This document shows, piece after piece, positions 8,850-30,000 of a DNA stretch of 64,000 nt; position 1 is the first letter of the stretch, and each line of letters starts with the position of its first letter. This DNA comes from a bacterium (GTDB taxonomy: Bacteria > Margulisbacteria > Marinamargulisbacteria > GCA-2716485 > JAYNIM01). Location: positions 500,631-564,630 of the forward strand of contig JAYNIM010000001.1 in the NCBI GenBank assembly GCA_038109055.1, given 5' to 3'. The notes under the pieces are model-generated. The model worked only from the letters and a program-made list of their open reading frames with translations. It was not told the origin of the DNA and did not search any database. The translations under genes and the position numbers were made by a program.

Positions 8850-10280
8850 ATGTTTATGTCATTAAAACTAATGCCTATTCTATGTCATAGATTCGGCCTC
8901 TTTCATCATATATTACTATTTCGTTTAAGCTATATGTCTTTTTTTATGCTCCCCTGTCTATCAGCCTTTTTGTTATTTATCCCTTTTATTCTTCCCTCTT
9001 TATTCTATCTCCAATATCTTGCATTTCTTCCTTTATTTTATTTGCTTTCTTTTAGTAAATCTCGCTGTATTTTTGTTATTATATTTATATTCCTTTTTGC
9101 TTATTTGGCTTTACATCATTTATGGTTCTTTTTTCTTTCTCCCTGGATCCCTGTTTTTTATATTTTTATTTTTTATTTTTTTTATATTTTATCTTTAGCT
9201 CTTATTTTTTCTTTGCTGCTGTTTTTCTTACTTTATTGTAGAAAGACCTTTTTATTTTTTATCCCTTTTTGGATATTTTTTGAGTGGGTCTGTGAGCATG
9301 TTTTTTTAAATCCTAGTTTATATCTTGCATACGCTCAAGGAAAAAATTTATTTTTTAGTCAATGGGCCTCAATACTTCCTCTGCCTTTATTTGCTTTTAT
9401 TATTTTATTGCTTAATCTCCTTTTATTTTTTCTTTTCTCTGCACATCACATTAAATTAAGCGTTTGTATGATCCTTTGTGTACTATTTTTTATGCATGCT
9501 CCTGGTTTTATCAGACTACAAAATCAACCCCTTATTAAAGATTATATCTCGGTTGTTGCGATACATGCCCAACATAGTCAACATCAACGTTTAGACCCTA
9601 ATTTATCCCTGATGAACTTTCACGATTATCTTAGCTTGAGTCGTTCTATTTTAGATCAACAATCCGCTAATTTACTTATTTGGCCAGAAACTTCTACATC
9701 TTATTTTGTGATTGACGATCCTAGTATTAAGGAAACGCTTCAGTCTTTCTGTCTACGCTATTCCTGTGATCTAGTTTTGGGTAGCAAGCACGTCGATAAT
9801 GACTTATATTTTAATGGCGCTGCACATTTTCATTCAACTCAAAAAACACCTAATTTTGTTAATAAACATCGCCTTATGCCTATTGGTGAGTACTGGCCCT
9901 TTCCCTTTTTCACTACACGTTATCAACAACTTTTTTCAGTGCACAGCTATACAGCAACTGATTCTATTAAGCTATTTTCTATTTCTAACTACCCTATTGC
10001 TCTTGCTATATGTTTAGATGCCAGTTCTGTCTCTTTATTCCAATCTTTTAAACATCAAGGGGCTGTGGCAGCAATTGTTTTGGCTAATCTTGCTTGGTTT
10101 GAAGATCCATTTATCAAAGAACGGTTTTTTAGGTTCTGCCAATTTCGTGCCATTCAAATGGGTAAATCTCTTTATGTGTTGGCAAATTATGGCCGCTCAG
10201 CCTTATTCAACCCTTTTGGTCAAGCATCTATTGTTTCAGAGGACCGTTTTTCTCATCGCTTCCTTATGCCAATTTACTAA
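8850..10280 (+). CDS. lnt: Apolipoprotein N-acyltransferase
   Basis: Polytopic hydrophobic N-terminal half plus a CN-hydrolase domain with the E/K/C triad context LLIWPETS, NKHRLMPIGEYWPF, ALAICLDAS. Confidence 0.75.
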   Translation: MFMSLKLMPILCHRFGLFHHILLFRLSYMSFFMLPCLSAFLLFIPFILPSLFYLQYLAFLPLFYLLSFSKSRCIFVIIFIFLFAYLALHHLWFFFLSPWIPVFYIFIFYFFYILSLALIFSLLLFFLLYCRKTFLFFIPFWIFFEWVCEHVFLNPSLYLAYAQGKNLFFSQWASILPLPLFAFIILLLNLLLFFLFSAHHIKLSVCMILCVLFFMHAPGFIRLQNQPLIKDYISVVAIHAQHSQHQRLDPNLSLMNFHDYLSLSRSILDQQSANLLIWPETSTSYFVIDDPSIKETLQSFCLRYSCDLVLGSKHVDNDLYFNGAAHFHSTQKTPNFVNKHRLMPIGEYWPFPFFTTRYQQLFSVHSYTATDSIKLFSISNYPIALAICLDASSVSLFQSFKHQGAVAAIVLANLAWFEDPFIKERFFRFCQFRAIQMGKSLYVLANYGRSALFNPFGQASIVSEDRFSHRFLMPIY

Positions 10281-10285
10281 AAAAT

Positions 10286-11098
10286 CTATGTGCTTGTAGT
10301 TGTTAAATCAAATTCTTCATCTAATGATTCTAATGAAATTGGATCTGCATCTAAAAAATCATTTTCTTCAAATAAATCTTCTTCAATACTATTTTCTATT
10401 AATTCCTCATTTGTACCTTTGATACTTTGCATATTCTTTGTTTCTGTAAGCTTATTTAATTCTGTTGTGCTTTGAAAACTATCCTTACGTTCTTTATTTT
10501 GATAGGATTCTTCTCTGTTATTACTTTCTTCTTTGCTACCTACCTCTATCTCATCGTTTTCATAAAATTGCATATATAATGCGTTGAATATACTTTCATC
10601 TAAAGGCGTGTTTTTTACTTTAGTATTTAGTATTCTTGATTTTTCATTTTCAGAGTAATGTTTTAGAATATTTTCTTGTTCTTGAAGGTCTAATTTAGTC
10701 AAAAAAAAGGCGATTGTTTGTACCTGTTCATTTTTTAATATCTCGGCAATTTCACTGTAGCTTCTCTGTGACCTGTCTGGATGACTATCTGCTACCTCTA
10801 ACAGGTCATCATCTTCTTCCGAAGTTTTTTCTTCTTCCTCTTCTTCCTCTATGTCATTTAAAAAATTGTCTTCCTGTATAAGACTCATATCTTCTGGTTG
10901 CTCTAGTGTAATATGATCTACTTCTTCAATAAATTCTGCTATTAATTGGTTTAGCTCTTTTTGAGATGGCATTGGAGGTTGTTCTATTTTTAACAACCTA
11001 GTTAAAGTATCTTGCCGCATGTGCTTTAAAACAGCCTCTGCTTGATTACCTAAAACAGATACTATAACCTTTGCTTTTATATGATTTTCTAGTGTCAC
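10286..11098 (-). CDS. fliG: FliG-like rotor protein: N and middle domains only, with an acidic low-complexity C-terminus
   Basis: Position directly after fliF. The N-domain KAKVIVSVLGNQAEAVLKHMRQDTLTRLL resembles FliG (AAILL.SLGEE.AAEVLKHL.E.EI..L). The middle region EILKNEQVQTIAFFLTKLDLQEQENILKHYSE resembles the EHPQTIA...L motif. Residues ~180-270 are Glu/Asp/Asn-rich with no recognisable C-domain. Confidence 0.55.
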   Translation of the reverse strand: MTLENHIKAKVIVSVLGNQAEAVLKHMRQDTLTRLLKIEQPPMPSQKELNQLIAEFIEEVDHITLEQPEDMSLIQEDNFLNDIEEEEEEEKTSEEDDDLLEVADSHPDRSQRSYSEIAEILKNEQVQTIAFFLTKLDLQEQENILKHYSENEKSRILNTKVKNTPLDESIFNALYMQFYENDEIEVGSKEESNNREESYQNKERKDSFQSTTELNKLTETKNMQSIKGTNEELIENSIEEDLFEENDFLDADPISLESLDEEFDLTTTST

Positions 11099-12588
11099 GT
11101 AAGTACCTCTTCTTTTAATAATTCTTCTAGAGCAGCTGCTATATGTTCTGGGTTTGATGTTGCTTTTTTCTTTAAGTCATCTATATTTCTTTCTTTTTGA
11201 ATCTCTTCTTTTAGTTGTTCAAATTTAGTGACTTCGTTTTGCTTTTTATTCAAAGAGCTACTGCCCTTTTTTCTTGACTTTAAGAAAAAATAAACCAAAG
11301 TTAAGCCCATAGACAACATGCCTATAACACCCCAACTTTCAAAATATTCAAAGATAGTTTTACTTTCATCTTTATAAAAAGGGGCTTTATTAAGAAAAAT
11401 AATATCACGCCCATCTTGATAGCCTATAATTGCGGCTATGGTAGAAAACACCTCTATTTTTTTTGCATCATCCAGCACAATATCTTCGTTATATTCATCG
11501 ACTATTATACTCACCGTTGTTCGTTTAATTTCGGCACTGTTACCGTCTTTTGATGCAGTAATTTCTGCATTTGCAGCTACCTTAAATGAATTTCTAGGAA
11601 AAACTCCAGCCAATTGTTTATTAATTTTACTTAATATATTATTTTCAAAATTTTCTTTTATTGTGAACCATTGTTTAATATTCTCAAAATTTGGAAGTAT
11701 TGGCTGCAATTCTTTTATTTCATCTGATTTTTCTTCTTTCTTTTTATCTAAGAGTCTATCTTTCTCAAAGACTTTTATTTTTTGTTCATTTTTTATTTCA
11801 TCTAAAATACCATAGGACAACTCAGTTCCTTGTGTGTCTACAACTGTTATATTTTTAAGACTTAAGCTTTCTACGGCTTTTGCGACGAGCTGCATAATAC
11901 TATAAACCATGGTTGTGGTTAATGTTTTACCAGGTGTTTTTCTAACCAAAATACTTGCTGTTACTGGGGGCTGTTTTGATATAAATAGACGCTCTTTAGG
12001 CATTACAATTTGAACTTTAGCATCTTCGATCATTTCCAAACTTGTAATGACTTTTTCGAGTTCTCCAGACAAGGCTCTTAAATAACGTACTTTCTTATCA
12101 AATTCTGTGACGCCTAAAGTTTGAGTATTGTCTAATAACTCATAGCCTTTAACAGCACCTGAAGGCAAGCCCTTTGTTGCGAGTAATACCTTTGCAGTTT
12201 CTAATTTTTTACTATCGACTGATAAACTAAAATTCTTTCCTTTTTGTGCCAAGGTAAATGAAATATTTGCAAAGCTTAATTCTTTAATGACTTGTGAGAC
12301 TTGTGTCGCTGGTAATTGTGGGTATAGAACCAGGTATTTTATTTTCTTATCCCGCTTGGTTTTTTTCTTTGTTTGAGATTGTGCCTCATTTTTCCCCTTA
12401 TTTCCCTCTAACCCAATGTCATCATTATCTAAATTAACATAAAATAATAGGCCTCCTATTATTAAGGCTGTCATAATAATGGCAGCCATCCATATATTTT
12501 TTTTATGAAATAACCTAGATGTTTTATCTTGTGTTAAGTTATTTAAATCTTCTTCTAAATCATCAATTATCAAATTTTCTTCTGCCAT
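11095..12588 (-). CDS. fliF: Flagellar MS-ring protein FliF
   Basis: Two TM segments (IWMAAIIMTALIIGGLLFYV; VIGMLSMGLTLVYFFL) flank a YscJ/FliF-type periplasmic domain (SQVIKELSFANISFTL, AKVLLATKGLPSG, YLRALSGELEKVITSLEMIEDAKVQIVMP). Confidence 0.85.
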   Translation of the reverse strand: MAEENLIIDDLEEDLNNLTQDKTSRLFHKKNIWMAAIIMTALIIGGLLFYVNLDNDDIGLEGNKGKNEAQSQTKKKTKRDKKIKYLVLYPQLPATQVSQVIKELSFANISFTLAQKGKNFSLSVDSKKLETAKVLLATKGLPSGAVKGYELLDNTQTLGVTEFDKKVRYLRALSGELEKVITSLEMIEDAKVQIVMPKERLFISKQPPVTASILVRKTPGKTLTTTMVYSIMQLVAKAVESLSLKNITVVDTQGTELSYGILDEIKNEQKIKVFEKDRLLDKKKEEKSDEIKELQPILPNFENIKQWFTIKENFENNILSKINKQLAGVFPRNSFKVAANAEITASKDGNSAEIKRTTVSIIVDEYNEDIVLDDAKKIEVFSTIAAIIGYQDGRDIIFLNKAPFYKDESKTIFEYFESWGVIGMLSMGLTLVYFFLKSRKKGSSSLNKKQNEVTKFEQLKEEIQKERNIDDLKKKATSNPEHIAAALEELLKEEVLT

Positions 12589-12594
12589 AACTAC

Positions 12595-13173
12595 CTAAAT
12601 TTGCATTGATATTAATTCTTTGAATGTTTGAGATGCAGTTGAAATAACCGTGGTTGCAAAGCTTATTGCTAAGTTTAATTTTGTCGTTTCAATCGATACC
12701 TCCTCGATTGATACTTTCCCTTCTACATATTTTTGCATAAGGTCATTTACTCTAAATTCTAACTGGCTAACACTGTTTAATGATTTAACGGCTTGTTCAC
12801 TAAAATACTGAAAAGGTGTGATCTCTAGTGCATGGTCAAAATTTAAATATTCTAATTTTTCCTCTTCTTTCGTTTCTGCATCAAATAGCTCTTTTGTTCT
12901 TTTTTTTCTATCTTGAATTGTTAAATTTGGATCATTTGCAGTTGCTGCTTGTGCAATTAAGACATGTTGATTTAAGTTAATTGGGTTATTTTGTATTGTT
13001 ACTTGTGGTAGTGGATTTTTTTCCTGAGTTTTATTATCCATTATTCCATCTAACAATAACTTAAACTCATTTTTTATTTCTGGTTTTACGATATTTTGCG
13101 CAAAGGATGTTGCTGATGTTGTGGGGTTTACGTTGTTAAGAGGGTTTATATTAAGGGGACTTATATTACTCAT
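12595..13173 (-). CDS. fliE: Flagellar hook-basal body protein FliE with a long N-terminal extension
   Basis: Position between flgC and fliF. The C-terminal ~80 aa fit the FliE pattern, ending ...ASQTFKELISMQI (compare ..AYQEIMRMQV). Confidence 0.6.
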   Translation of the reverse strand: MSNISPLNINPLNNVNPTTSATSFAQNIVKPEIKNEFKLLLDGIMDNKTQEKNPLPQVTIQNNPINLNQHVLIAQAATANDPNLTIQDRKKRTKELFDAETKEEEKLEYLNFDHALEITPFQYFSEQAVKSLNSVSQLEFRVNDLMQKYVEGKVSIEEVSIETTKLNLAISFATTVISTASQTFKELISMQI

Positions 13174-13174
13174 A

Positions 13175-13630
13175 TTATTTCATTAACTCTATTGCACTTT
13201 GATACATTGATTTGCTAACTTTTAATGCGGTTATGTTTGCCTCATATACGGCCTCTGTAAATGTTAATGTCATCATCTCATTAGGCAGATTAACATTTGG
13301 ATAATAAAAATAACCATTTTCATCCGCTTGAGGTGCGGCTGGATCAAAATAACGCCCGAAAGGTTCTGTACTTCTTTTTATTCCAGTTACTTTTACCCCG
13401 TCTTTAAATTTTTCTAGTTGAATATATTTCTTTTGATAAGGTAATCCTGTTTCTTCGTCTTTTAAAGTATTTAAGTTTGCAACATTTTCTGCGATAATCA
13501 TCATTTTTGTTCTCTGTGCTAAAATCCCCGATATATTTATAGAAAATGAATCATCTAAATTTGAAACTGCATAGACTGAGTATGATACGTATACTGTTAT
13601 TATACATATAATTGCCGTTATTCTATTCAT
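13175..13630 (-). CDS. flgC: Flagellar basal-body rod protein FlgC
   Basis: ISGILAQRTKMMIIAENVANLNT (rod-protein N-motif) and C-terminal NVNLPNEMMTLTFTEAVYEANITALKVSKSMYQSAIEL. A ~25 aa hydrophobic N-terminal extension is present. Confidence 0.85.
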   Translation of the reverse strand: MNRITAIICIITVYVSYSVYAVSNLDDSFSINISGILAQRTKMMIIAENVANLNTLKDEETGLPYQKKYIQLEKFKDGVKVTGIKRSTEPFGRYFDPAAPQADENGYFYYPNVNLPNEMMTLTFTEAVYEANITALKVSKSMYQSAIELMK

Positions 13631-14043
13631 TATTGTTTACCTAGTGTCACTACTTTTCTTAAATTCTCTACGCGTTTTTTATAAAGTGTATATAACGCTT
13701 GTTGCCGTTTGTTGTTTTCTGCAATTTTTCCCATAAAATGTTCTATCATTACTTTCGAAAAGTATGCTTTATCTTCTGTTTCAACATTAAACAAGCGCTC
13801 TAATTCGGCTCTATCTTCTGGTAATAAAATTGGCCTAAATTTTGGTGTTGTGGCATTTGCTATGTTGTATGAATATATCGCATGTTTTTGGTTACTATAT
13901 TTTATAGCACGCTCTAATACCATCCCTGTTGAATCTTCAAGTATATGTCCTTTTGTTTTACTTTTTGCTATATCTAGTTTTTGTGCTAGTAAGGACGTAG
14001 TTAAACTTATAAATATAGCTATTACCAGTATTCTCGCTATCAT
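13630..14043 (-). CDS. flgB: Flagellar basal-body rod protein FlgB
   Basis: LERAIKYSNQKHAIYSYNIANATTPKF parallels FlgB L.LRA.RQ.VLA.NIANADTPGY. Gene order is flgB-flgC-fliE. Hydrophobic N-terminal extension present. Confidence 0.7.
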   Translation of the reverse strand: MIARILVIAIFISLTTSLLAQKLDIAKSKTKGHILEDSTGMVLERAIKYSNQKHAIYSYNIANATTPKFRPILLPEDRAELERLFNVETEDKAYFSKVMIEHFMGKIAENNKRQQALYTLYKKRVENLRKVVTLGKQ

Positions 14044-14052
14044 ATTTTTTGT

Positions 14053-14778
14053 TTATATATAAATATCTTTTTCTTCTAATTCTAAATATCTCTTAATTAA
14101 TTTTAACGCTTCCATATGGACTCTGCAAACTTTGCTTTTGGACACCTTTAATTTCTCTGCAACTTCGTTTTGTTTCATGTTACTTTGATAAATTAATTGT
14201 ATAACTTCTTTCTTAGCTGATTCTAATTTATTCACAATATTCCATATATTTGTTGTACTTTCAATATACGCTTCTTCTATATCTCTTCCACACGTATTGG
14301 CGGTAGAAAATTTCTCTAAATCGTTGGTATTTAGTAGATAGGATACGGATGACTGTGTCACGATCTCATTTAATGTTTTTTCAAAACTTTGTCTATTTGC
14401 TTTATTTTTATCGTCGAGTATATTCTCCGTAATCTCCATCATTTTTTCTTGTATATTTTCTCTATATCTTGCGTATTCAGCAGGATTCTTTTGTTTCCAT
14501 TCCAACCTCAAATTATCCATTATCTGACCTTGAATACGATAATATGCGTAGGTTTTAAAATTAGATTCTTTTTTTTCTTTGTATTGCACTTTCGCTTTAA
14601 TCAAGCCTTCAATACCCCAACTGATTAAATCCTCTTTTTCAACACCTGAAGGTATTTTAGACTTCATAAATATTTTACTCGCAACTCCTTTAACTAGAAT
14701 TAAATGGTCATCGATAAATGCTTGTGATACTTGCTGTTGTAATATCTCTTCTTTGCTATTCATATTTATGTTAGTCAA
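14053..14778 (-). CDS. fliA: Flagellar sigma factor FliA (sigma-28 family)
   Basis: Region 2 EDLISWGIEGLIKAKVQYKEKKESNFKTYAYYRIQGQIMDNLR. Region 4 HTH MKQNEVAEKLKVSKSKVCRVHMEALKLIKRYL. Embedded in the flagellar operon. Confidence 0.8.
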   Translation of the reverse strand: MTNINMNSKEEILQQQVSQAFIDDHLILVKGVASKIFMKSKIPSGVEKEDLISWGIEGLIKAKVQYKEKKESNFKTYAYYRIQGQIMDNLRLEWKQKNPAEYARYRENIQEKMMEITENILDDKNKANRQSFEKTLNEIVTQSSVSYLLNTNDLEKFSTANTCGRDIEEAYIESTTNIWNIVNKLESAKKEVIQLIYQSNMKQNEVAEKLKVSKSKVCRVHMEALKLIKRYLELEEKDIYI

Positions 14779-15406
14779 TTAATTTTTGTTTTGTTTTGTG
14801 TATATATATGATATCTCTTTCTTCATTATAATCTATAGTATCAGATACGATTAAAAAAACAGATTCTTCTATTTTTTCATCTAAACTATTCTCTTGTGCT
14901 AATATACTTATACTCTTTTTTTGAATAGTGCTATTATTTTTATTTAACTCTACTCTTGAGACTATTCTAAAGGATTTTTCTGGGAATGCTTCTCTCAACT
15001 TTCTTTTTACTCTATTGGATAAATTGTTTTCTATATGTTCTTTCCGTGAGAGTGATGCATCTTTGGGCAAAAATTTTTCCTCAAACTTTAATAAATCCAT
15101 TTTTGCAAGTTTATCTGCCATTTCTTTAGCTAGCAGATCATTGATCATGTCACTTTGTGTCACATCTATATAATCGATATCTTCATCTATAAATATTTCC
15201 ATTTTTTTAAAAGCAGGTTCCGTTAAAATCTTCTTGATAAAAAAAGACTGCATAAACTGGACTGCTTCTTTTCTTGTTCTGGGTTTTTTATTATTATACA
15301 AACTTGAAGAATAATGATTAGCCGCTAATGGTATTCCTTCGTAACTCATTGATGGAATAGCATAACTAATAGCAATAATACCTATAATTATTATAATTTT
15401 GTTCAA
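14771..15406 (-). CDS. Flagellar-operon protein in the flgJ position: signal peptide, rod-binding-like segment and a FliF-like C-terminal segment
   Basis: Lies between flgI and fliA. KEAVQFMQSFFIKKILTE resembles the FlgJ rod-binding motif (..QFE..F...ML..M). The C-terminus (FPEKSFRIVSRVE...IDYNEERDIIYIHK) resembles FliF 11095-12588 (FPRNSFKVAANAE...IGYQDGRDIIFLNK). Confidence 0.4.
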   Translation of the reverse strand: MNKIIIIIGIIAISYAIPSMSYEGIPLAANHYSSSLYNNKKPRTRKEAVQFMQSFFIKKILTEPAFKKMEIFIDEDIDYIDVTQSDMINDLLAKEMADKLAKMDLLKFEEKFLPKDASLSRKEHIENNLSNRVKRKLREAFPEKSFRIVSRVELNKNNSTIQKKSISILAQENSLDEKIEESVFLIVSDTIDYNEERDIIYIHKTKQKLID

Positions 15407-16476
15407 ATGATTTCAATGTTTGCTATCAGTGCGCCTGCTTCTTTTAGTGCTTGTATAATTGAAATTAAATCTCTTGGAGAAGCACCAATTTCATTTAAAG
15501 TATCTACTAAGCTTGATAGTGTTTCGTTTGATTTTAAATATACTAACTTTTTCTTCTCTTCATCAATTTCTAACTGATTTTGCTGATCTGATATTGCACC
15601 TGCTTGTGGTTCTGTAATTCGAATAGATACAGCCCCATGTGTCAAGGCTACAGGGCTTAAACGCACCATTTCTCCAATTACAATGGTACCTGTTCTTTCA
15701 TTAATGACAATTTTTGCTGATTGGTCAGGCTTTACTGAAATATTTTCTAATTTTGCAATGGTACTAATTAAATTTGCTGAATTCAAATCTGTTAATGGTA
15801 TTTTAATTTGTCTAGCATCTAATGCTTTTGCACCTAAAAAGCCCTCATCATGGATGGCATTAACTGCACGATCTATAGTTATAAAATTTGAATCATTTAA
15901 AACAATGGAGATATTGTGCACATCTGTAAAGGTGACGGGAACTTCTTTTTCTACAATGGCCCCATCTGTGATAATTCCAACTGTTGGTTTGTTTTTAGCA
16001 TACATAATGGTACTTGAACGCTGTGCTGCACCTCCCACTACAACCGAACCTTGGCCAACAGCATAAACTCTCATATCAGCACCTTTCAAGGGGGTCATCA
16101 ATAAGGTACCTCCATCTAAACTAGATGCATCTCCGAGTGCTGATACCGTTAGTGAAATCCGTTGTCCTGACTTTACAAATGCGGGTAGGGTTGCTGTCAC
16201 CATCACGGCTGCCGTGTTTCGTATATTACCAACACTACCTACTTGTACACCCATTTTAACTAATAAATTTCTCAGTGCAGTTGGTGTAAAAAAGGTATTT
16301 CGACTGTCACCAGTACTTTTCAATCCAACCACTAAGCCAAATCCAATTAATTGGTTATCTCTCATTTCTACAATTTTTGAAATATCTTTTAACCTTACTT
16401 CTACAGCAAAGCTTGCTGTAGTAAAGCTAAATAATACTAGTAGTAACAATGCTCGTTTCATTTTTAAAATACCCAA
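15403..16476 (-). CDS. flgI: Flagellar P-ring protein FlgI
   Basis: Signal peptide followed by RLKDISKIVEMRDNQLIGFGLVVGLKSTGD and full-length FlgI-like sequence, ending ...LKEAGALIANIEII. Confidence 0.9.
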   Translation of the reverse strand: MGILKMKRALLLLVLFSFTTASFAVEVRLKDISKIVEMRDNQLIGFGLVVGLKSTGDSRNTFFTPTALRNLLVKMGVQVGSVGNIRNTAAVMVTATLPAFVKSGQRISLTVSALGDASSLDGGTLLMTPLKGADMRVYAVGQGSVVVGGAAQRSSTIMYAKNKPTVGIITDGAIVEKEVPVTFTDVHNISIVLNDSNFITIDRAVNAIHDEGFLGAKALDARQIKIPLTDLNSANLISTIAKLENISVKPDQSAKIVINERTGTIVIGEMVRLSPVALTHGAVSIRITEPQAGAISDQQNQLEIDEEKKKLVYLKSNETLSSLVDTLNEIGASPRDLISIIQALKEAGALIANIEII

Positions 16477-17072
16477 TTAAATATCCTACTTATTATTCCT
16501 GGATTCTGCTTGGCTGCAACTGGTCCCCCTCTACCGCTTACTGAAACCTCAGCTTTTGCAATTTGATACGAAAAAATAGTATTCTTTGGAGTCACATCTG
16601 CAGGCCGCACAATCCCAGATACTCGAATAGTTTCGATGTCATGATTCACTTTAACCTTGTGTTCTCCCACTACAAATAAATTCCCGCTCTTTAACACTTC
16701 TGTCACAATTGCCGTTATAATTGCCTTTACGTTGCTTTTTCTCGTCGTTTGTCCATTGCCTTGATATCTATCACCCCCGCCTATAGAGATATCTCGTTTT
16801 TTCCTCACTCGTTCATTGCCTAATAAATTAGCCACTTGATCCCAATTGTCTGCAAGTGATGAGGTTAGTGAGGTTGTTTTTCCTGAAGAGGTGCTCGCCT
16901 GTTGTACAGCGGAGGTGGATTCGGATACGTAGATAGTAACGATATCCCCCACTGAAATTCTTCGTCGCGATGGTTGGTATATGCCTTCACTATAGGTTCT
17001 CCATAATGAATCTGCCCCAATAGATGTTGTTACTAAGATTAATAAACTAATCAATATAAATATTTTTTTCAT
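16464..17072 (-). CDS. flgH: Flagellar L-ring protein FlgH
   Basis: Signal peptide, SLW....RR..VGDIVTIYVSE, then ITAIVTEVLKSGNLFVVGEHKVKVNHDIETIRVSGIVRPADV, the typical FlgH core. Confidence 0.85.
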   Translation of the reverse strand: MKKIFILISLLILVTTSIGADSLWRTYSEGIYQPSRRRISVGDIVTIYVSESTSAVQQASTSSGKTTSLTSSLADNWDQVANLLGNERVRKKRDISIGGGDRYQGNGQTTRKSNVKAIITAIVTEVLKSGNLFVVGEHKVKVNHDIETIRVSGIVRPADVTPKNTIFSYQIAKAEVSVSGRGGPVAAKQNPGIISRIFNWVF

Positions 17073-17784
17073 CTATCACTTTTCCTTTTAATCGTTTTAG
17101 TGTTGATAATTTTGATGTTACCGGTATGTACCCACCTATTTGACCATCCGCTAATGCTTGTCCATCAACTTTTATTTGCCCCCATTTTTTATTTATTAAA
17201 ATTGATATAGGATCACCTTTTTGTATTGCTGGTTTTTCTTCTATGGCTAAATAATGTACCTGTGTATTTTTAGGAATACTACGTTTTGCTATTTTTCCTA
17301 TCATTTCTTCCTTAGTAAATATATAATTCTGCAGGGTTGATAATTTTGAATAAATTAATTTTTCTTTCATGATTAAATCAGACTCTGTAATCATTTTACC
17401 TCGTTGAATCAAGTGCTTTGTGACAGGCATTTTTGTGGTTGCTTCTATTTTTAATAAAAGGGTCTGTCTTTCTAGAAGAGTCCCCTGCCGGTCATAGAAA
17501 AAAATCGGCTGTATTTGAGTCCCCAGTAAATCGTTGATTTTAGGGTCTGGACATTTAAAATAACTGGCTTTTTCAGGTATATCTAATTTTGTTAAATCAA
17601 TTTTGAATGTCATTTTAAAGGTCATTAATTCTGCATTTATATTTCCCAGAACATGCTCTAATTTTTGTCGATAGACAGTTCTGACTTCTTTTTTGATATC
17701 TGCTAGACTCACCGCAGCATGAATCGTATTTATCGCTAGACTCACAATCAAACTAATAATAAAAAAAAGCCTACTTAATGTCAC
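17047..17784 (-). CDS. flgA: Flagellar P-ring assembly chaperone FlgA
   Basis: Signal peptide and C-terminal SAF/FlgA pattern (IAKRSIPKNTQV....IQKGDPISILINKKWGQIKVDGQALADGQIGGYIPV). Position upstream of flgH/flgI. Confidence 0.7.
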   Translation of the reverse strand: MTLSRLFFIISLIVSLAINTIHAAVSLADIKKEVRTVYRQKLEHVLGNINAELMTFKMTFKIDLTKLDIPEKASYFKCPDPKINDLLGTQIQPIFFYDRQGTLLERQTLLLKIEATTKMPVTKHLIQRGKMITESDLIMKEKLIYSKLSTLQNYIFTKEEMIGKIAKRSIPKNTQVHYLAIEEKPAIQKGDPISILINKKWGQIKVDGQALADGQIGGYIPVTSKLSTLKRLKGKVIDEKNIYID

Positions 17785-18568
17785 TTCCAGCCTTTAGCAT
17801 ATCATCGGATGCTTTCATTGCTTTAATAACCGTTTCAAAGGAACGTTGACACATCAGCATTTCCATCATTTCAGAGATAATATCTACATTTGAAAATTCC
17901 AATGATCGTTGCCTGATAGACCCCATGCCCTGTTCACCCGGTATAATTAATTGTGGATCCCCAGAGCTTTCTGTTTCTTGCATTAAATTTTGGCCAATAT
18001 CTTTTAAACCTTCTGGATTCATAAACTTTGCTAAGACCATCTGTCCAATTTCTTGTTGTTGAGTATCTCCATCTAATAAGGCAAAAATTCGGCCTTCTTG
18101 ATTCACAATAATTTCTCTTGCTTCTAAAGGGATAGTTAATGGTGGATCTAAGGGATGTCCGCTAGAATTTAATACTCTTCCTTGACTGTCTACATGAAAA
18201 TTTCCTGCTCGACTATAAGCGGCGCTTCCATCTGGCAATTGAAACTGAAACATACCATTCCCTTCGATTGCCATATCCATTTGCCTGTTTGTTACTTCGA
18301 TTGTTCCAGTACTAAAGTTCTTTGTAATACCCACGAACCGAACACCTTGACCAAACTCGATATATTTTTTTCTACGTTTGCTGCTACCTGTTTCTTCATC
18401 AGACTCCGTCACAGCTCTTTCAAAAATTAATGGAAACAAACTTTCCATCTCTAAGCGTCTTTCCTTATATCCTGGTGTTTGTGCATTTGAGATATTATTT
18501 GTAATAACCTGCATTTTTCGTTGAAACGAATATAATGCTGATTTTGCCATATGTAATTGAGATAACAT
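17771..18568 (-). CDS. flgG: Flagellar distal rod protein FlgG
   Basis: MAKSALYSFQRKMQVITNNISNAQTPGYK N-motif and C-terminal LEFSNVDIISEMMEMLMCQRSFETVIKAMKASDDML. Confidence 0.9.
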   Translation of the reverse strand: MLSQLHMAKSALYSFQRKMQVITNNISNAQTPGYKERRLEMESLFPLIFERAVTESDEETGSSKRRKKYIEFGQGVRFVGITKNFSTGTIEVTNRQMDMAIEGNGMFQFQLPDGSAAYSRAGNFHVDSQGRVLNSSGHPLDPPLTIPLEAREIIVNQEGRIFALLDGDTQQQEIGQMVLAKFMNPEGLKDIGQNLMQETESSGDPQLIIPGEQGMGSIRQRSLEFSNVDIISEMMEMLMCQRSFETVIKAMKASDDMLKAGSDIK

Positions 18569-18586: not shown

Positions 18587-19393
18587 TTAATTTGGTGCGG
18601 CAATTTGTGTCGCTGTATTGGCTGATCGTGCCAATACTTTAAGAACCTTTGCATTTGATTGATACCCATTTGTTGCATAGGTTATATCTCCTACTAAGGC
18701 TTTTACTACATTATTTTCTTCTATATGACCTTGTACAACTTTATAGTACTCAACCCCACTCAAAATTTCAGCCTCTTCTACTAGTACAAATACGGATCCA
18801 TTCAGTGAATTGAGCTTTTGCATTTCTTTATAGGAGGCAAATACCGCTACTTTTATACGATCTACTTCTTCACCATCTACGTATATCATTCCAGATCGTG
18901 ACACAACAACATCGCCTTTAGGCAAGTATATTGGCCCTTTATCACCTAATACGGGATAATTTCCGGCAACAGTGACTAAACGGTCACTCCCATCTCTCGT
19001 GAAGCGCCCATCTCGGGTATAACCCAGAGTTGTTTTTAATTGTATAACAAAAAAACCTTTACTCATCGCATCTATGTAAAAATCTAATGGTCTATGTGTT
19101 TCAACGACCGGACCTGCTCGCCAACGATAAAAAGGAATGGCATCTATTCGTTTCTCTCCATTCTTATCAATCATTCTTGAATTAAACGCGCCTGTTTCGA
19201 TAAAGCCTGGTGTGTTTACATTCATGGTGTAAAACAACCAATTACTCCACTGAATTTGAAAAGCCCTCATTGCTTGCATACTTCCATTAGCGGCAATATC
19301 TTGAATCTCACCATAATCCTCATAAGAAGAAAGGTTACTCGTTATGATAAGTAGACATACTATCAAGGTCTTTATTTTATTAATACCGTTCAT
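18587..19393 (-). CDS. flgF: Flagellar proximal rod protein FlgF
   Basis: NVNTPGF N-motif, GYTRDGRFTRDGSDRLVTVAGNYPVLG core, C-terminal IEENNVVKALVGDITYATNGYQSNAKVLKV. Upstream of flgG. Hydrophobic ~35 aa N-terminal extension. Confidence 0.7.
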   Translation of the reverse strand: MNGINKIKTLIVCLLIITSNLSSYEDYGEIQDIAANGSMQAMRAFQIQWSNWLFYTMNVNTPGFIETGAFNSRMIDKNGEKRIDAIPFYRWRAGPVVETHRPLDFYIDAMSKGFFVIQLKTTLGYTRDGRFTRDGSDRLVTVAGNYPVLGDKGPIYLPKGDVVVSRSGMIYVDGEEVDRIKVAVFASYKEMQKLNSLNGSVFVLVEEAEILSGVEYYKVVQGHIEENNVVKALVGDITYATNGYQSNAKVLKVLARSANTATQIAAPN

Positions 19394-19408: not shown

Positions 19409-19780
19409 TTATTTTCTTTTTAGTTTCTTATTAATCTTATTTCGTTTATCCGATAATTTTTCAAGTTGATACGCAAAGGCTAACACCTCTGCTATTATAG
19501 CATATAATTTTGATGGTATATGTTGATTCAATTCTAATTTAGACAACAAATTACTTAATACGGGATCTTCATACAGAGGTATTTTGTGATCTTCTGCAAT
19601 ATGTAAAATCATTTCAGCAATTGAGGCTTTACCAGATGCAACGATTTTTGGGGCCTTGTCTTTTTCAATATCATATTTTATTGCGACTGCTTTTAACTTT
19701 TCTTTTTTGGGTAGATTTAACTGATCAATACGTTTCTTAAAGTTGATCTTATGTTTCTTCTGATTCTCGTTTGCCATCAT
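19409..19780 (-). CDS. FlhB C-terminal-domain-like protein (EscU/YscU/FlhB cytoplasmic domain paralogue, YlqH-type)
   Basis: KAVAIKYDIEKDKAPKIVASGKASIAEMILHIAEDHKIPLYEDPVLSNLLSKLELNQHIPSKLYAIIAEVLAFAY matches the FlhB_C pattern (A.AL.Y......AP.VVAKG....A..I...A.E..IP......L...L......I.......VAE...). Confidence 0.75.
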   Translation of the reverse strand: MMANENQKKHKINFKKRIDQLNLPKKEKLKAVAIKYDIEKDKAPKIVASGKASIAEMILHIAEDHKIPLYEDPVLSNLLSKLELNQHIPSKLYAIIAEVLAFAYQLEKLSDKRNKINKKLKRK

Positions 19781-20994
19781 GCCTCTGTACTAATATGTGT
19801 TAACCTATCTAAATCAAAATTTGGACATAACAATTCTTTTACCGGGATCTTTTTATCCATATATTTCACACCTTTAACTTTATAGTTAATGGCTTCCATT
19901 TGCTTTATTAAATCTGGAACCAAACTTGAAATTATCCGTTTTGTTTCTCCGTCTTTGCTATTAAACGTATATATTAGCGTATTCTCTATGACATTGATCA
20001 CAATACTTAATTCCCCAATATTTTCTGTTTCAAACTTAATGATCATGGTTGTTTTATCTTCATTTATCTGTGAGTTTTGTTTATTATTTCGTTTTTGAAT
20101 GAGGATATCCATATTATTTACTGGCGAGGCTAATAAATTTGGTATTTGCCAAAAATGAAACAAGTCTGCCTTAATCATAAACTGTGACTCTTTGGATAAG
20201 ACCAAATAAGCTAAACTATGATCAATATATTTTTCTAGTGATTTTTGCGTTTTCTCAAAAACTTCTTTGAGGCTTTGTTGTTGATATACATCTTTTATTT
20301 GAGTCAGTATTTTTTTATCCATCCCTTTTAGAAGACTCAAAAACAGTTTCGACTCTTTCATTAACCCAACATATTTTTCAACTTTAAAATTCAGCATGTT
20401 CTTTTTATCAAATCTGTAAAATTGTAACTTCTCATCTATTGCCGCTACTATCGCCGCTAAATGTTGCGTAAAAGCAGGACTCAATCCATCCTTAGAGGCG
20501 TGCATCGCTGCTTGTAATGCTTGTAAGTTTTGCTGTAATTGTTTGACTGTCCCTGTTAAATCTAATTCATTTGATAAAAATTGTTTTAACACAGAAATAC
20601 TTTTACCGTTCCCTTTTAAATTTTTAGCAATTGATAAGACGATAGACTCTAAATCCTTTGATGACGTCTTTCCTTTCATCAAATTATCAATTATTTCAAA
20701 ATAATCTTGATTCAAAGGAACTCCATAAGAAAGCATCGTCATGCCAATCCTCATATTATCAACATTGGGACTCTTACCAAAACTTAAGAGTTGATTCATG
20801 ATGTCATCTTTCGAATAGGGCTGTCGTTTACTTTCTGTTTTTTTTGTTGTTGAACGCACATCTTCTGATTGTGCTGTATGAATAGATGATACATTCGTTT
20901 CGTGACTTGTCTTTGATAGGGATCTACTTTGAGATTCCTCCGGAAGCTTGGGAGGTTGCGCACGATGTGATGAACCGGGAACTGATAAATTCAT
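19777..20994 (-). CDS. fliK: Flagellar hook-length control protein FliK-like
   Basis: Disordered Ser/Thr/Pro-rich N-terminus. The C-terminal block IIKFETENIGELSIVINVIENTLIYTFNSKDGETKRIISSLVPDLIKQMEAINYKV fits the FliK C-domain pattern (L.P..LG.L.V.I.......F.......R..L...L..L...L). First gene of the flagellar operon. Confidence 0.55.
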   Translation of the reverse strand: MNLSVPGSSHRAQPPKLPEESQSRSLSKTSHETNVSSIHTAQSEDVRSTTKKTESKRQPYSKDDIMNQLLSFGKSPNVDNMRIGMTMLSYGVPLNQDYFEIIDNLMKGKTSSKDLESIVLSIAKNLKGNGKSISVLKQFLSNELDLTGTVKQLQQNLQALQAAMHASKDGLSPAFTQHLAAIVAAIDEKLQFYRFDKKNMLNFKVEKYVGLMKESKLFLSLLKGMDKKILTQIKDVYQQQSLKEVFEKTQKSLEKYIDHSLAYLVLSKESQFMIKADLFHFWQIPNLLASPVNNMDILIQKRNNKQNSQINEDKTTMIIKFETENIGELSIVINVIENTLIYTFNSKDGETKRIISSLVPDLIKQMEAINYKVKGVKYMDKKIPVKELLCPNFDLDRLTHISTEA

Positions 20995-27079: not shown

Positions 27080-30000
27080 ATGTCTATGAGTACCCCTGGT
27101 TTACCTCCAGGTTCAAGTTTACCTCAAGCTTTACATTCGCACCCCTATGCATCTGTTGCTCTTCCCAATGCTGTTGCTGCTTCCGATACTACGTCCTCTA
27201 CTGCTGCTACGGCTCTTTCTCCTCTTGCTTCTGCTTCTGGAGATGGGCCTAAATTTGATATTACTTCTCCGGATACCGAATCGGCTATTAAGTCTATTAG
27301 GGAGACAACGTCACATTTAAACAAATTATACGACGCTGATAAACGCACTAAAAACTTTGCTACATTTCGAGCACAACGTGACACGGAGATCAGCGCAATG
27401 AATAAGTTTTTTAAGACTGATCCCGACTCAATCTGCCCTTTACTTCTATTAGAGACTATCGGAGCTCAAACTGAGACTCTTTTTAGTTCCAATGTAGATA
27501 CGACTTGCGGAATCATCGCAAAGGATGCTGAAGAGTTACGTAAAGTTCAAAATAAATTTTTCTTATTTGCTAAAGTAGCTGCAGTGCTGCTTCAACGGAT
27601 TCTTGATGATGCACAGACTAAGCTTAATAAATTGGCTCTTAAACGTGCTATTACCTTATTTTCGCAATTAATGACTGTCTTAAAAGCTAATCTTGATCCC
27701 ACATATCAATATCAAGCTGATATTCATGTCTTGAATGACTATTTTTCTGCTGCTGTTAAGGGAACCCCTCAACATGGTGGGCGTATGCTAGAAAAAAAAT
27801 GGTTCGCTTATTTTCCTGTCAAGCCTTCTAAGGATCGGATCACGTTATTAAAGGATGTTGATGGTAGTGATACTGAGTTACTTGAAGATTCATACTTTGA
27901 TACACATAAGTTTAATCTTGGGGAAAACACTTGTTATCTTGGTTATCAAAGCAACTCTTCAACCCCTCCTTCTACGGCTAAAATAGATCTAGATTTATTT
28001 CGACTGAGCTATTGTGGTACGAAGACACATCACGGGTCTGTTTTTGGCCCTCACGTTTCATCTGAGACTAGGATTTCCTTAGGTTCTAAACTTTATCAGG
28101 AGCTTATAGACTTAAACGATCCCCTAATCCAGTCTAAACTAACTCCGTCTACTTCTGATATCAGTTATACTGAACTGCAAGAATTGATTTCTTATGTCGC
28201 TGAACTTCCTCACACTAGAGATGATTTATTAGCTTCATTACTTTCTCTAAATGACGGTATTTCAACGGCTCAGGCACGTTCTCTTGCGAAAGATACTCTT
28301 AGGGCTGAAAAGTGTGAGGATGTTCTTGGAATCAACAATCCTGGAAACCACTGCTATGCAAATGCCACCATACAAATGCTACGCTCTTTGCCGCAGACAT
28401 TTCGCGATTATCTGGAATCAGTCCCTTTTCCACCTGACGCTATTTCTTTATCTGATCCTCTATACGCAAACTTCGTAGCAGATAATATTGTTCATTTAAA
28501 GGATCTTCTTGATCCTAAAACTTCAGCAAAAGATGCTAATACTGCTCTTTCAGCTATATTGAAATCCTTTGATGACGAGAACGACACTGATTTTAATACA
28601 GCTCAACAAGATCCTCATGAGTTACTCACTCAGATCATTTCATGTTTCTTACCTGATCTTAATGATCATTCCAGATTACAGGAGTATGCAACTAAGACAG
28701 GCATGCCTATTCATGTTAAAAGTCACTATGTATCTAGTAATTTTTCTTCTCATCGTGCACAAATTGGTCCAGTAGAATATAACTGGTTCGATGAGTTCCA
28801 GGTTCAAGAACTAGATGATTCCCACAATGCTCAAGATACCTTTCTAGCTCCGAAAAAGAGAGAAAGTGAACTAAACGGGAATGGAGGATGTGTTAATGCT
28901 GATGTGCTTGCCTATTATGATCAGCATAAAGGCACCTTAAGTGCCTCAGAACAACAGGCCATTGATGGAGCTGGACTTAGTGAGCAGCAAAAGGTGGCAC
29001 TTATTATGCAGACATTCACAAACAAGGATTCCTCCCTTGATTTTTCTCAGGTAAAACAAGTTGATGTTAAAGAGACTATCTTTCCTTCAACTCGTTCTGA
29101 TGATCCGCCTATACGCCATCTTTCCTTTAGACGTGATGCTCAAAATGGCAGAAAACTCACCAACCCAGTCGACTTAACTCACACAACGTGTATTATCGTT
29201 CATCAAGGTCCGTCGATGAATCAAGGTCATTATGTGACCTATCGTCTTCTCGAACAATATGGACAAGATAATATCTGGGTATGTTTAAATGATGGGAGAT
29301 CTACAATTTGTTCTGACCCTCGAAATGATCCGACTATACGTGCAAACGCTGTCTATGCGATTTATGACGCAACTGCCCCTCCTGTTGTTGCTGCCAGTAG
29401 TCGAGACACAGTTGATCTGTTTAGACCCTTAGCTGCTGCTTCTGCTGAGGCTGCTGGATCTTCAGTCCCATTGCCTGCTGTTCGAGGTATTGCTGCGTCT
29501 GGGTATTTACATCACCTTCAACAACAACATTTCAGACAGGATCCTCACATAGGGCTAGATATGCAACATGTTGCCCATGATACTATTGCTTTTAATGAAG
29601 AAAACCATGCGACGGGTGTATTATCGAATACAGCACGTGCCCCTTTTAAGGCAAAGGTACCCTATCATGGACCCGAACAAGAAAAAGAGTTTCCATCAGC
29701 TGAACATTATTTTCATTATATGAAATTGGCTTATATTGAACAGAATTCTACCCATGGGCTATTACATGGTAACGACCCACAAACTAAGGAATACTGGCTT
29801 AAACGCATGTTACCTCTACAAGGTTCACAGTTGCAAGATCAGTGTGATGACTGGGGATTCAATGACGCTTTTAAATCACCTGGCGTTCCCGAATGGCATG
29901 ACGAGGGTAAAAAAAAAGTGATGTGGGATGCCTTATGCCTCAAATATCAGGCCCCTCATAACCAAGAGTTTAGAAAGATGATCAATGAAATAGCTAGGTG

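Follow-up and report, generated by a model that had tools for sequence, protein, structure and literature searches.

Only the N and middle domains of the flagellar rotor protein FliG are encoded by the 270-aa open reading frame at positions 10286–11098 (minus strand) of the window, that is, of the whole 64,000-nt stretch of DNA analysed here. This short homologue, called FliG-NM below, was identified by Pfam, a family profile, AlphaFold and Foldseek. The torque-generating C-domain is absent from it, and this absence is a conserved trait of the whole protein family. The ORF, which NCBI annotates as hypothetical, is orthologous to fliG and belongs to a compact cluster of 14 genes for a basal body (MS ring, rod, P and L rings). 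We put at about one half the probability that FliG-NM is an adaptor docking onto FliF in a basal body to which no stator supplies torque.

Domain structure of FliG-NM

Based on the family alignment, AlphaFold predicted two confident domains (residues 1–66 and 111–180; pLDDT >90), with the rest of the protein disordered, and the top Foldseek matches to this model are FliG chains (domain-level rmsd 2–2.5 Å). The N-domain (residues 1–66; 10901–11098, minus strand) has three helices and is the predicted docking site for the C-terminal tail of FliF. It superposes on Thermotoga maritima FliG_N of the FliF_C:FliG_N complex 5tdy with an rmsd of 1.9–2.2 Å over 62–67 columns, and about 65 of the approximately 100 residues of FliG_N are present. 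With the single sequence, Pfam FliG_N matches residues 9–63 at 22 bits, just under the 25-bit cutoff, and this match includes VIVSVLGNQAEAVLKHM (residues 11–27). The middle (ARM_M) domain (residues 111–180; 10559–10768, minus strand) has five helices and superposes on FliG_M of the FliG–FliM complexes 4qrm, 4fq0 and 3soh (rmsd about 2.5 Å, TM 0.63–0.68). Pfam FliG_M matches residues 116–158 of it with 29.8 bits (cutoff 25; E = 7 × 10-7), including the segment EILKNEQVQ...SRIL (residues 119–157). Between the two domains lies an acidic disordered linker (residues 67–110; 10769–10900, minus strand; pLDDT about 50), 48% of which is Asp or Glu and which includes the acidic insert EEEEEEKTSEEDDD at residues 84–97.

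A search of the PDB with the single FliG-NM sequence gave no match, and the family profile was needed: it aligned, from family residue 3 onward, to residues 4–158 of Salmonella FliG (E = 10-12), and it also matched Aquifex FliG (E = 3 × 10-10), the matches being confined to FliG residues 4–160. An FliG-like N-domain, an acidic insert and a middle-domain-like block had been proposed in a first-pass annotation of this DNA, and all three are confirmed. The same annotation read the EHPQ motif of the middle domain as NEQVQ. This is correct for the window protein, in which the motif corresponds to E124-Q125-V126-Q127 by family column statistics. To call the motif degenerate would not be right for the family, whose members keep it in part as [Q/E]-[K/R/S]-P-Q (Pro in 65% and Gln in 96%), followed by a variable residue at the Arg position; the Val in place of Pro makes the window protein the outlier.

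Absence of the torque-generating domain

Torque is universally generated at FliG_C, whose charged ridge must contact MotA. A natural flagellar system with a FliG devoid of this domain is not known to us, and full-text literature searches found no description of such a FliG. In its place, FliG-NM has a disordered acidic and polar tail (residues 181–270; 10289–10558, minus strand; pLDDT about 50, no secondary structure), which is 30% Asp/Glu and 38% Ser/Thr/Asn/Gln/Gly/Pro and bears the acid-Phe motifs DLF, NDFL and EEFDL close to its end. Pfam gave no match to PF01706 (FliG_C) in FliG-NM; NCBIfam returned no family at E ≤ 0.01, so that its curated full-length FliG model was not passed; and six-frame phmmer searches of the window and 14 loci with a canonical FliG query recovered only N and middle-domain matches, with FliG_C in no frame. 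The possibility that the tail is a cryptic FliG_C was rejected, as profile matches end at about residue 160, the tail is predicted to be disordered and the six-frame search was negative. Nor is there room for a C-domain downstream, because the stop codon of FliG-NM is 5 bp from the convergent gene lnt (apolipoprotein N-acyltransferase; 8850–10280, plus strand; Pfam LNT_N and CN_hydrolase), which marks the end of the cluster. The first-pass annotation had described the last 90 or so residues as acidic, polar and of low complexity and had failed to find the C-terminal helical domain in them; the composition and predicted disorder of the tail agree with the former, and the alignments to domain models and the structure prediction, which recovered the N and middle domains and no FliG_C, with the latter.

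The source is a metagenome-assembled genome, and the FliG-NM ORF contains one homopolymer (T8, the only one), so that a frameshift or a chimeric join hiding a full-length fliG had to be considered. However, an independent assembly, of run SRR26337569, has exactly the same sequence at window positions 9690–12098 (2.4 kb), the longest open stretches in the remaining minus-strand frames are 27 and 32 aa, and the T8 lies inside a conserved IAFFL motif that is in frame on both sides. In addition, lnt abuts the stop codon, and relatives from unrelated samples end at the same point as the window protein. A sequencing error, for which the first-pass annotation had proposed a check, is thus effectively refuted, and we regard an artefact of this kind as having a practically negligible probability.

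A conserved family of short FliG proteins

An exhaustive phmmer search with clustering at 50% identity yielded 48 cluster representatives, all of them built as N-linker-M. Word-seeded searches had returned only the query itself, and then 4 and 9 relatives, with acidic low-complexity words swamping the selection of candidates; a metagenome scan with a 12-sequence subset added three short contigs only and no further context. Members are mostly 150–280 aa in length and consist of an N block of about 65 aa, a linker of 27–97 aa, a middle block of about 75 aa and a tail of 0–161 aa. The two longest (338 and 362 aa) differ only by longer tails, and several terminate directly after the middle block without any tail. 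The truncation point is identical across members, and the core residues K8, L16, L35, A118, L121, Q127, F131 and P165 are near-invariant. Where present, the acidic tails terminate in a conserved aromatic motif, aromatic residues making up 22% of the last six tail positions versus 5% (Fisher p = 6 × 10-14).

With 24–27% identity, FliG-NM is the fastest-evolving protein of the cluster (FliF, 36–44%; FlgI, 54–61%), which may reflect relaxed or changed constraint. This low conservation would suit a flagellum in the course of being lost, in which the short fliG is the non-functional leftover of a 3' deletion, as would the low complexity of the linker and tail, the missing Pro of the PQ motif in the window protein and a Leu in place of a conserved Trp in the window FliF. 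Against such erosion, the architecture persists in all 48 clusters with its near-invariant core and its common truncation point, the ORFs are intact and translationally coupled at every locus, and both domains are predicted from the family alignment with high confidence. We consider erosion to be very improbable; the short FliG is a real, evolutionarily conserved form, and not the product of decay, error or a one-off truncation. Annotation now labels the family "hypothetical", and predictors of motility from genomes would score FliG in such organisms as absent, or might miscount it as present.

The 14-gene basal-body cluster

The cluster runs in the order FliK-like, FlhB-C-like, FlgF, FlgG, FlgA, FlgH, FlgI, protein X, sigma factor, FlgB, FlgC, FliE, FliF and FliG-NM, all on the minus strand of the window, and the same 14 genes, with FliG-NM last, were found in nine distinct lineages or contexts with differing downstream neighbours. 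Assemblies that contain the cluster are the VW378 MAG (proteins around MEK9657182–MEK9657221, on a 709,387-bp contig), PBBE01 (SP4294), GCA_040960175.1, GCA_964349635.1 and GCA_965002935.1, as well as the 136-kb JGI contig Ga0172373_10000071. The arrangement of FliG-NM next to lnt is repeated in four loci (L001, L009, L017 and L018). The GTG start codon of FliG-NM overlaps the stop codon of fliF by 4 nt, and FliG-NM is translationally coupled to fliF. The latter gene (11095–12588) encodes an MS-ring protein of 497 aa that matches Pfam YscJ_FliF (E = 4 × 10-48) and residues 51–221 of Salmonella FliF. Its C-terminal tail contains the FliG-binding-like motif NPEHIAAALEELL; a motif (D/N)P..[IV]A..[IL]..W[LV] near the FliF C-terminus is conserved in six loci, and it is the Trp of this motif that is replaced by Leu in the window. 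Retention of the motif supports a putative binding of FliG-NM to FliF.

Upstream of fliF lie genes for a FliE-like protein (12595–13173; 192 aa, N-terminally extended and, by hydropathy, without a signal peptide; Pfam FliE 26 bits, NCBIfam fliE below cutoff), FlgC (13175–13630; NCBIfam FlgC 102.6 bits, cutoff 102.1) and a FlgB-like protein (13630–14043), residues 39–108 of which match positions 4–74 of the NCBIfam FlgB profile weakly. A FliA/WhiG-like sigma factor (14053–14778; Pfam Sigma70_r2 and r4; NCBIfam FliA_WhiG 102 bits, below the cutoff of 189.6) is encoded at the same position of the cluster in all complete loci. Protein X (14771–15406; 211 aa) is secreted and has no match in Pfam or NCBIfam. 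On visual impression only, it contains a motif like that of the rod-binding FlgJ N-terminal domain. The ring genes comprise flgI (P-ring; 15403–16476; Pfam FlgI, E = 4 × 10-107), flgH (L-ring; 16464–17072; Pfam FlgH, E = 10-42), whose product, judged from N-termini, has no lipobox cysteine, and flgA (P-ring chaperone; 17047–17784; Pfam ChapFlgA, E = 4 × 10-19). The distal rod protein FlgG (17771–18568; NCBIfam flgG_G_neg 260.2 bits, cutoff 252.75) has a canonical N-terminus and no signal peptide, and next to its gene is that of a FlgF-like rod protein (18587–19393; Pfam LlgE_F_G_D1; NCBIfam flgF 82.8 bits, below cutoff). The first two genes of the cluster encode a stand-alone protein of 123 aa resembling the C-terminal subdomain of FlhB (19409–19780; positions 262–334 of the 335 of Pfam Bac_export_2; NCBIfam flhB_rel 89 bits, below cutoff) and a FliK-like protein (19777–20994; 405 aa) that bears a Flg_hook (T3S4) domain at its C-terminus (Pfam Flg_hook 32.7 bits); the stop codon of the FliK-like gene overlaps the start of the FlhB-C-like gene.

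The sequence covered here is about 69 kb, out of a 709-kb contig, around the window gene, and at other loci up to 10 kb on either side of FliG-NM. No other flagellar genes were found in the 64-kb window and 5 kb upstream of it, nor within 10 kb of the cluster at the other loci. This applies to genes for the export gate, C-ring, stator, hook and filament (FliPQR, FlhA/B, FliI, FliM/N, MotA/B, FlgE and FliC). ExbB/ExbD/TonB genes at 1406–2931 were considered as a stator and rejected, being Ton-type proteins by Pfam.

Predicted Sec signal peptides on rod proteins

Rod proteins exported by the flagellar type III system have no Sec signal peptide, and their N-termini begin with the rod motif. The FlgB, FlgC and FlgF proteins of the cluster depart from this: together with protein X, they have Sec signal peptides in six of six loci, according to hydropathy calculation and inspection. 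In these loci the N-termini of FlgB, FlgC and FlgF consist of a basic n-region, 12–20 hydrophobic residues and a small-x-small site. In the window FlgC the signal peptide is 22 aa long and precedes the canonical N-terminus, residues 27 and 29 aligning to residues 5 and 7 of solved FlgC chains. Full-text literature searches found no description of Sec-routed rod proteins. As judged from these N-termini, rerouting of FlgB, FlgC, FlgF and X to Sec would fit a rebuilt, non-canonical assembly. A type III export gate is expected elsewhere in the genome, because the FliK-like and FlhB-C-like proteins are present and FlgG and FliE have no signal peptides.

The expected gate would also suit a normal rotating flagellum whose torque domain is supplied in trans, by a separate FliG_C protein or a second full-length FliG, with FliG-NM being the FliF-proximal half of the rotor or part of a second, specialised basal body. 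Flagellar genes are often spread over several loci; the LP-ring and FlgA genes are kept and well conserved; and the conserved [Q/E]xPQ corresponds to the surface that binds FliM in canonical FliG. On the other hand, neither a FliG_C-like sequence nor a further flagellar gene was detected in the searches of the window and the fetched loci described above. Assembly of the canonical ring relies on stacking of ARM_M on ARM_C between neighbouring chains, no natural split FliG is known to us or was found in the literature searches, and FliG-NM evolves faster than FliF, the opposite of canonical motors. We therefore consider a split or duplicated rotor unlikely, though far from negligible.

Comparison with known systems

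FliG-NM resembles canonical FliG (PF14842 + PF14841 + PF01706; TIGR00207; Salmonella 8umd_B and Aquifex 3hjl) in the position and translational coupling of its gene directly downstream of fliF, in an N-domain fold that matches the FliF_C-binding domain, in a middle ARM domain with a PQ-containing motif and in the alignment of its family profile to FliG residues 4–160. The differences begin in FliG_N, of which about 65 residues are left, an acidic disordered linker standing in for its remainder and for helix-NM. Helix-MC, ARM_C and the torque-helix domain are missing, and many members instead end in an acidic tail tipped by an aromatic motif. Conservation does not extend to the Arg of EHPQR, and the NCBIfam FliG model is failed. 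Weak Foldseek matches (ranks 20–47) to cytosolic domains of MgtE reflect the FliG-type helical ARM fold of the MgtE N-terminal domain. Their scores are far weaker than those of FliG, however, and FliG-NM has neither CBS nor membrane domains and stands in a purely flagellar context.

The sorting platform of the injectisome (the non-flagellar type III secretion system) belongs to a flagellum-related basal body whose cytoplasmic face is an adaptor or platform without torque, and the likeness to FliG-NM is conceptual. Injectisomes lack FliG homologues and flagellar rod proteins and use a secretin in place of an LP ring, whereas FlgB/C/F/G, FlgH and FlgI are kept here. Buchnera aphidicola has likewise kept basal-body genes (FliE, FliF and FlgB/C/F/G/H/I) where motility seems lost (PMC8109811). 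In that bacterium fliC and motAB are lost, but a full-size FliG (38 kDa), FliM, FliN, the whole export gate and its ATPase are retained (PMC8109811). The present situation is different, since the loss lies within FliG itself, which is full-size in the non-motile Buchnera bodies, and several rod proteins carry Sec signal peptides; the present system is known from the genes of one cluster. Lysobacter enzymogenes OH11, which has no flagella, also keeps a partial flagellar set (FlgC, FlgG, FlgH, FlgI, FliF and others), without detectable FliG, FliM and FliC, which is apparently reused for secretion (PMC7688988). In OH11, however, FliG is undetected and not truncated, the retained core is the export apparatus, and Sec-routed rod proteins are not reported.

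A possible non-rotating basal body

If FliG-NM is a FliF-docking adaptor, its N-domain would fold together with the tail that is conserved at the C-terminus of FliF, as happens in canonical motors, and this co-folding may stabilise or nucleate the MS ring, the formation of which is promoted by FliG (PMC10941966). The middle domain would build a thin cytoplasmic ring layer, on which the conserved [Q/E]xPQ surface would still be available to a partner, FliM-like or other, while the flexible acidic tail may recruit a further partner via its terminal Phe-rich motif. Such a rotor layer would present no surface for MotA/PomA. Because FliG-NM, without a C-domain, offers none, the basal body of the cluster is most likely non-rotating, and it would span the envelope as a static structure that is used for export or as a scaffold. 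The view taken in the first-pass annotation, that the rotor may be unable to couple to a stator and that this fits a non-motile use of the basal body, is plausible.

Three features speak against the adaptor reading. The FliK-like ruler and the FlhB-C-like protein are kept, and a FliK ruler usually implies a hook, so that the cluster alone may understate how complete, and how conventional, the system is. The LP ring, whose best-known role is to act as a bushing around a rod that rotates, is retained. Finally, the conserved [Q/E]xPQ surface, as seen in the family alignment, hints at a FliM-type C-ring partner.

A wider scenario, which we advance tentatively and consider somewhat doubtful, is that a diderm lineage without cultured members, met with in marine and freshwater metagenomes, has converted its flagellar basal body into an apparatus that spans the envelope and does not rotate. 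FliG without its torque domain would then be an adaptor held by FliF, recruiting through a disordered, acidic tail with Phe at its tip, and the proximal rod (FlgB, FlgC, FlgF and the cap-like X) would be delivered by Sec and not through the type III channel. If true, the flagellum would have been exapted here independently of the injectisome, in a second case of its rebuilding for another purpose; it would show how a rotary machine can be reduced to a static structure across the envelope, and the rod would possibly be the first of flagellar type to be assembled from the periplasm. FliG-NM would also be a natural minimal FliG for studies of MS-ring nucleation and of FliF–FliG co-folding.

Other features of the loci

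Searches for rRNA, tRNA and Rfam families gave no match within the window. Genes with SLH domains occur near the cluster and prompt the tentative guess of a Margulisbacteria-like lineage, on which literature searches returned nothing. Nqr and RlmN genes were noted in the 5 kb beyond one end of the window. One of the relatives, L001, is labelled Actinomycetota; this label is doubtful because L001 encodes L and P rings and LptF/G-type neighbours.

A FliG homolog without the torque-generating domain

The 497-aa gene for FliF (MS ring) overlaps by 4 nt, at its stop codon, an ORF of 270 aa with a GTG start (10286..11098, minus strand), annotated at NCBI, on a contig of 709,387 bp, as 'MAG: hypothetical protein VW378_02265 [bacterium]' and named FliG-NM here. 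Pfam recognizes FliG_M in residues 116–158 (29.8 bits against a cutoff of 25, E = 7e-7) and, slightly below its cutoff, FliG_N in residues 9–63 (22 bits), FliG_C was not found in the ORF, and there was no match in NCBIfam. The sequence features quoted in the first-pass annotation were each located in the ORF where it had placed them, and the missing C-terminal torque domain that it reported is borne out by Pfam, by structure prediction, by the family profile and by six-frame phmmer searches, in which a canonical 343-aa FliG (P0049) gave only N/M matches, and nothing like a C-domain, in the window and every fetched locus.

A convergent lnt gene ends 5 bp from the stop codon of the ORF, so that no room is left for a FliG C-domain downstream. 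In the remaining two frames of the same strand the longest open stretches are 27 and 32 aa, and the sole homopolymer of the ORF, T8, lies within the conserved IAFFL motif and is in frame on either side. A sequencing or assembly artefact, which would also yield a short ORF and for which a frameshift check had been proposed, is contradicted by an independent assembly of run SRR26337569, base-for-base the same over 9690-12098, and by the relatives described below, and is extremely improbable. The truncation of the FliG ORF is real.

The FliG-NM family

A word-seeded homologue search retrieved FliG-NM itself only; phmmer, run exhaustively over 1.84 billion cluster representatives (E ≤ 1e-3), gave 48 relatives, nearly all of 150–280 aa. 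Their architecture is strikingly uniform, with an N block (about 65 aa), an acidic linker (27–97 aa), an M block (about 75 aa) and a tail (0–161 aa). Several members end right at the M block and have no tail, and the extra length of the two longest (338 and 362 aa) consists of longer acidic tails. Against solved FliG chains, the match of the family profile is confined to FliG residues 4–160 (Salmonella 8umd_B, E = 1e-12; Aquifex 3hjl, 3e-10). AlphaFold2, run on the family alignment, predicts confident helical domains at residues 1–66 and 111–180 (pLDDT >90) and disorder at 67–110 and 181–270 (pLDDT about 50), the latter leaving no C-domain fold. FliG chains were the top Foldseek matches of this predicted model in the PDB: the N block superposes on Thermotoga maritima FliG_N bound to the FliF C-terminus (5tdy, rmsd 1.9–2.2 Å), and the M block on FliG_M of the FliG–FliM complexes 4qrm, 4fq0 and 3soh (rmsd about 2.5 Å, TM 0.63–0.68).

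Profiles and predicted structure together show FliG-NM, at the level of sequence, to be a conserved FliG orthologue without the torque domain; this much of the first-pass interpretation stands, and for the family as a whole. Decay of a shortened fliG gene is contradicted by the same family-wide conservation and is improbable. FliG-NM has the N-domain, the M-domain with a partly kept EHPQ motif, and the synteny with fliF, and it lacks the C-domain and gives no match to the full-length curated model. We would place it in a subfamily of FliG and not with canonical FliG.

Putative binding sites

At its C-terminus, FliF of six loci retains (D/N)P..[IV]A..[IL]..W[LV], with Leu in place of Trp in the window protein; this motif resembles the FliG-binding tail of canonical FliF. 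At the EHPQ-equivalent of the M block the family reads [Q/E](98%)-[K/R/S]-P(65%)-Q(96%), and the window protein E-Q-V-Q; the position equivalent to Arg of EHPQR is unconserved. Since PQ is kept and the Arg position varies, the M block seems to retain a putative binding surface, though not clearly one for FliM. Linkers and tails are acidic. Over the 36 tails that reach 12 aa or more, 22% of the residues in the last six positions are aromatic, versus 5% elsewhere (Fisher p = 6e-14), the usual endings being ..LFSF, ..SFFS and ..QPFF; the window tail (10289-10558) carries DLF, NDFL and EEFDL near its end. The Phe-rich tail end has the look of a short linear docking motif carried by a flexible arm.

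A conserved basal-body gene cluster

FliG-NM closes a compact, co-directional gene cluster on the minus strand, in which Pfam and NCBIfam identify the order FliK-like, FlhB-C-subdomain-like, FlgF-like, FlgG, FlgA, FlgH (L ring), FlgI (P ring), protein X (211 aa, no family match), FliA/WhiG-like sigma, FlgB-like, FlgC, FliE-like, FliF and FliG-NM. The identical order, with FliG-NM last, was found at L001 (from a Tara Oceans MAG), L002, L005/L006, L009, L015/L016, L017 and L018/L019; L007 differs by an inverted FliK to FlgF part, and L003 contains the cluster in part. The gene beyond FliG-NM varies (lnt, an 897-aa unknown protein, a Ser/Thr kinase-STAND protein, a methyltransferase-like protein, a Wza-like exporter or SecA), and at no fetched locus is it fliH or fliI, the successors of fliG in canonical operons with this order. 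Divergence from the window proteins is deep, with identities of 54–61% for FlgI, 46–57% for FlgG, 36–44% for FliF and 24–27% for FliG-NM, the fastest-evolving protein of the cluster; FliG of ordinary flagella ranks with their best-conserved proteins. Gene order and sequence show the cluster to be a conserved module predicted to specify MS ring, rod and LP ring.

Sec signal peptides on rod proteins

FlgB and FlgC (13175-14043), protein X (14771-15406) and FlgF (18587-19393), all on the minus strand, carry an N-terminal Sec signal peptide of typical build in each of the six loci examined (the window, L001, L002, L005, L007 and L009): a basic n-region, 12–20 hydrophobic residues and a cleavage site of the small-x-small type. 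By hydropathy calculation and inspection (not SignalP), these N-termini are similar to those of the Sec substrates FlgA, FlgH and FlgI, and FlgG, FliE and the FliK-like and FlhB-C-like proteins have no signal peptide. In alignments with solved FlgC chains, residues 27/29 of the window FlgC fall on residues 5/7, so that the 22-aa peptide is grafted exactly ahead of the canonical N-terminus. Because rod proteins of canonical flagella lack a signal peptide and are type III substrates, the Sec peptides suggest delivery of part of the rod via Sec.

A static basal body or a flagellum

We propose that the N-domain of FliG-NM would bind the FliF tail and aid formation of the MS ring, a process promoted by FliG (PMC10941966), that the M-domains would make a thin cytoplasmic layer, and that the acidic, Phe-tipped tail may recruit a partner. 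Without FliG_C, such a layer would give a MotA-type stator nothing to push on; the basal body would most likely be non-rotating, a static apparatus for export or scaffolding with a proximal rod delivered in part via Sec. To this joint reading we give a probability of about 0.5. The main rival is a functional flagellum whose torque domain, or a complete second fliG, is encoded elsewhere. In its favor are the FliK-like and FlhB-C-like proteins, FlgG and FliE without signal peptides, and the conserved PQ surface, and all but the last imply a type III gate somewhere. Further flagellar genes were found neither in the 64-kb window, nor 5 kb upstream, nor within 10 kb of the cluster at any fetched locus, and we regard this rival as rather unlikely. 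The ExbB/ExbD/TonB genes at 1406-2931 were considered as a stator and rejected, being a Ton system by Pfam.

To our knowledge, injectisomes have neither FliG nor an LP ring. The basal bodies of Buchnera lack flagellin and MotAB and keep a full-size FliG (38 kDa), FliM/N and the export gate (PMC8109811), and Lysobacter enzymogenes OH11, a bacterium without flagella, has a residual flagellar type III system in which FliG and FliM were undetected (PMC7688988). Reduction of FliG to N- and M-domains and Sec-routed rod proteins are features of the FliG-NM cluster that none of the three shares; full-text literature searches turned up a description of neither.

Other features of the cluster and its neighborhood

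The FliK-like gene (C-terminal T3S4/Flg_hook) overlaps the FlhB-C-like gene by 4 nt (19409-20994, minus strand), and the two are adjacent at all loci with both on the fetched DNA. The stand-alone FlhB C-subdomain-like protein (123 aa) begins past where the NPTH cleavage site would lie, and the cluster contains no hook gene for the FliK-like ruler to measure. The sigma factor gene (14053-14778, minus strand), below the NCBIfam cutoff, keeps its place amid the structural operon in all complete loci, and no FlgM-like anti-sigma gene was seen near it. By eye, protein X has a FlgJ rod-binding-like motif, for which there was no profile support. FlgH (16464-17072) has a signal peptide but lacks a lipobox cysteine in all six loci, and is probably not a lipoprotein here; despite this, lnt adjoins the cluster in five lineages. 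Recognizable conservation of FliF (11095-12588) is limited to RBM1–RBM2 (Salmonella residues 51–221), and the RBM3 and beta-collar region, which in Salmonella encloses the proximal rod, gave no Pfam match and almost no PDB match; this may be linked with Sec routing of the proximal rod proteins.

A direct repeat of about 1.6 kb with near-identical copies (29430-31020 and 34284-35874, spacing 4854 bp) takes in the C-terminal NADAR-domain portions of two large proteins (one of 1040 aa that carries a eukaryote-like UCH, or ubiquitin hydrolase, domain, the other of 1312 aa) and the complete DUF481 gene after each. It may have arisen by recent duplication or be an artefact of assembly. Eukaryote-like domains at 27080-30202, 57300-58598 and 60326-61087 (UCH deubiquitinase, PIF1-type helicase and leucine-rich repeats) are a hint that the source organism lives in association with a host. 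Locus L001 (PBBE01000005.1), labelled 'Actinomycetota bacterium', encodes FlgH and FlgI, and LptF/G and Lnt adjoin its cluster; because L/P rings, LptF/G and Lnt are diderm features, this label is probably wrong.
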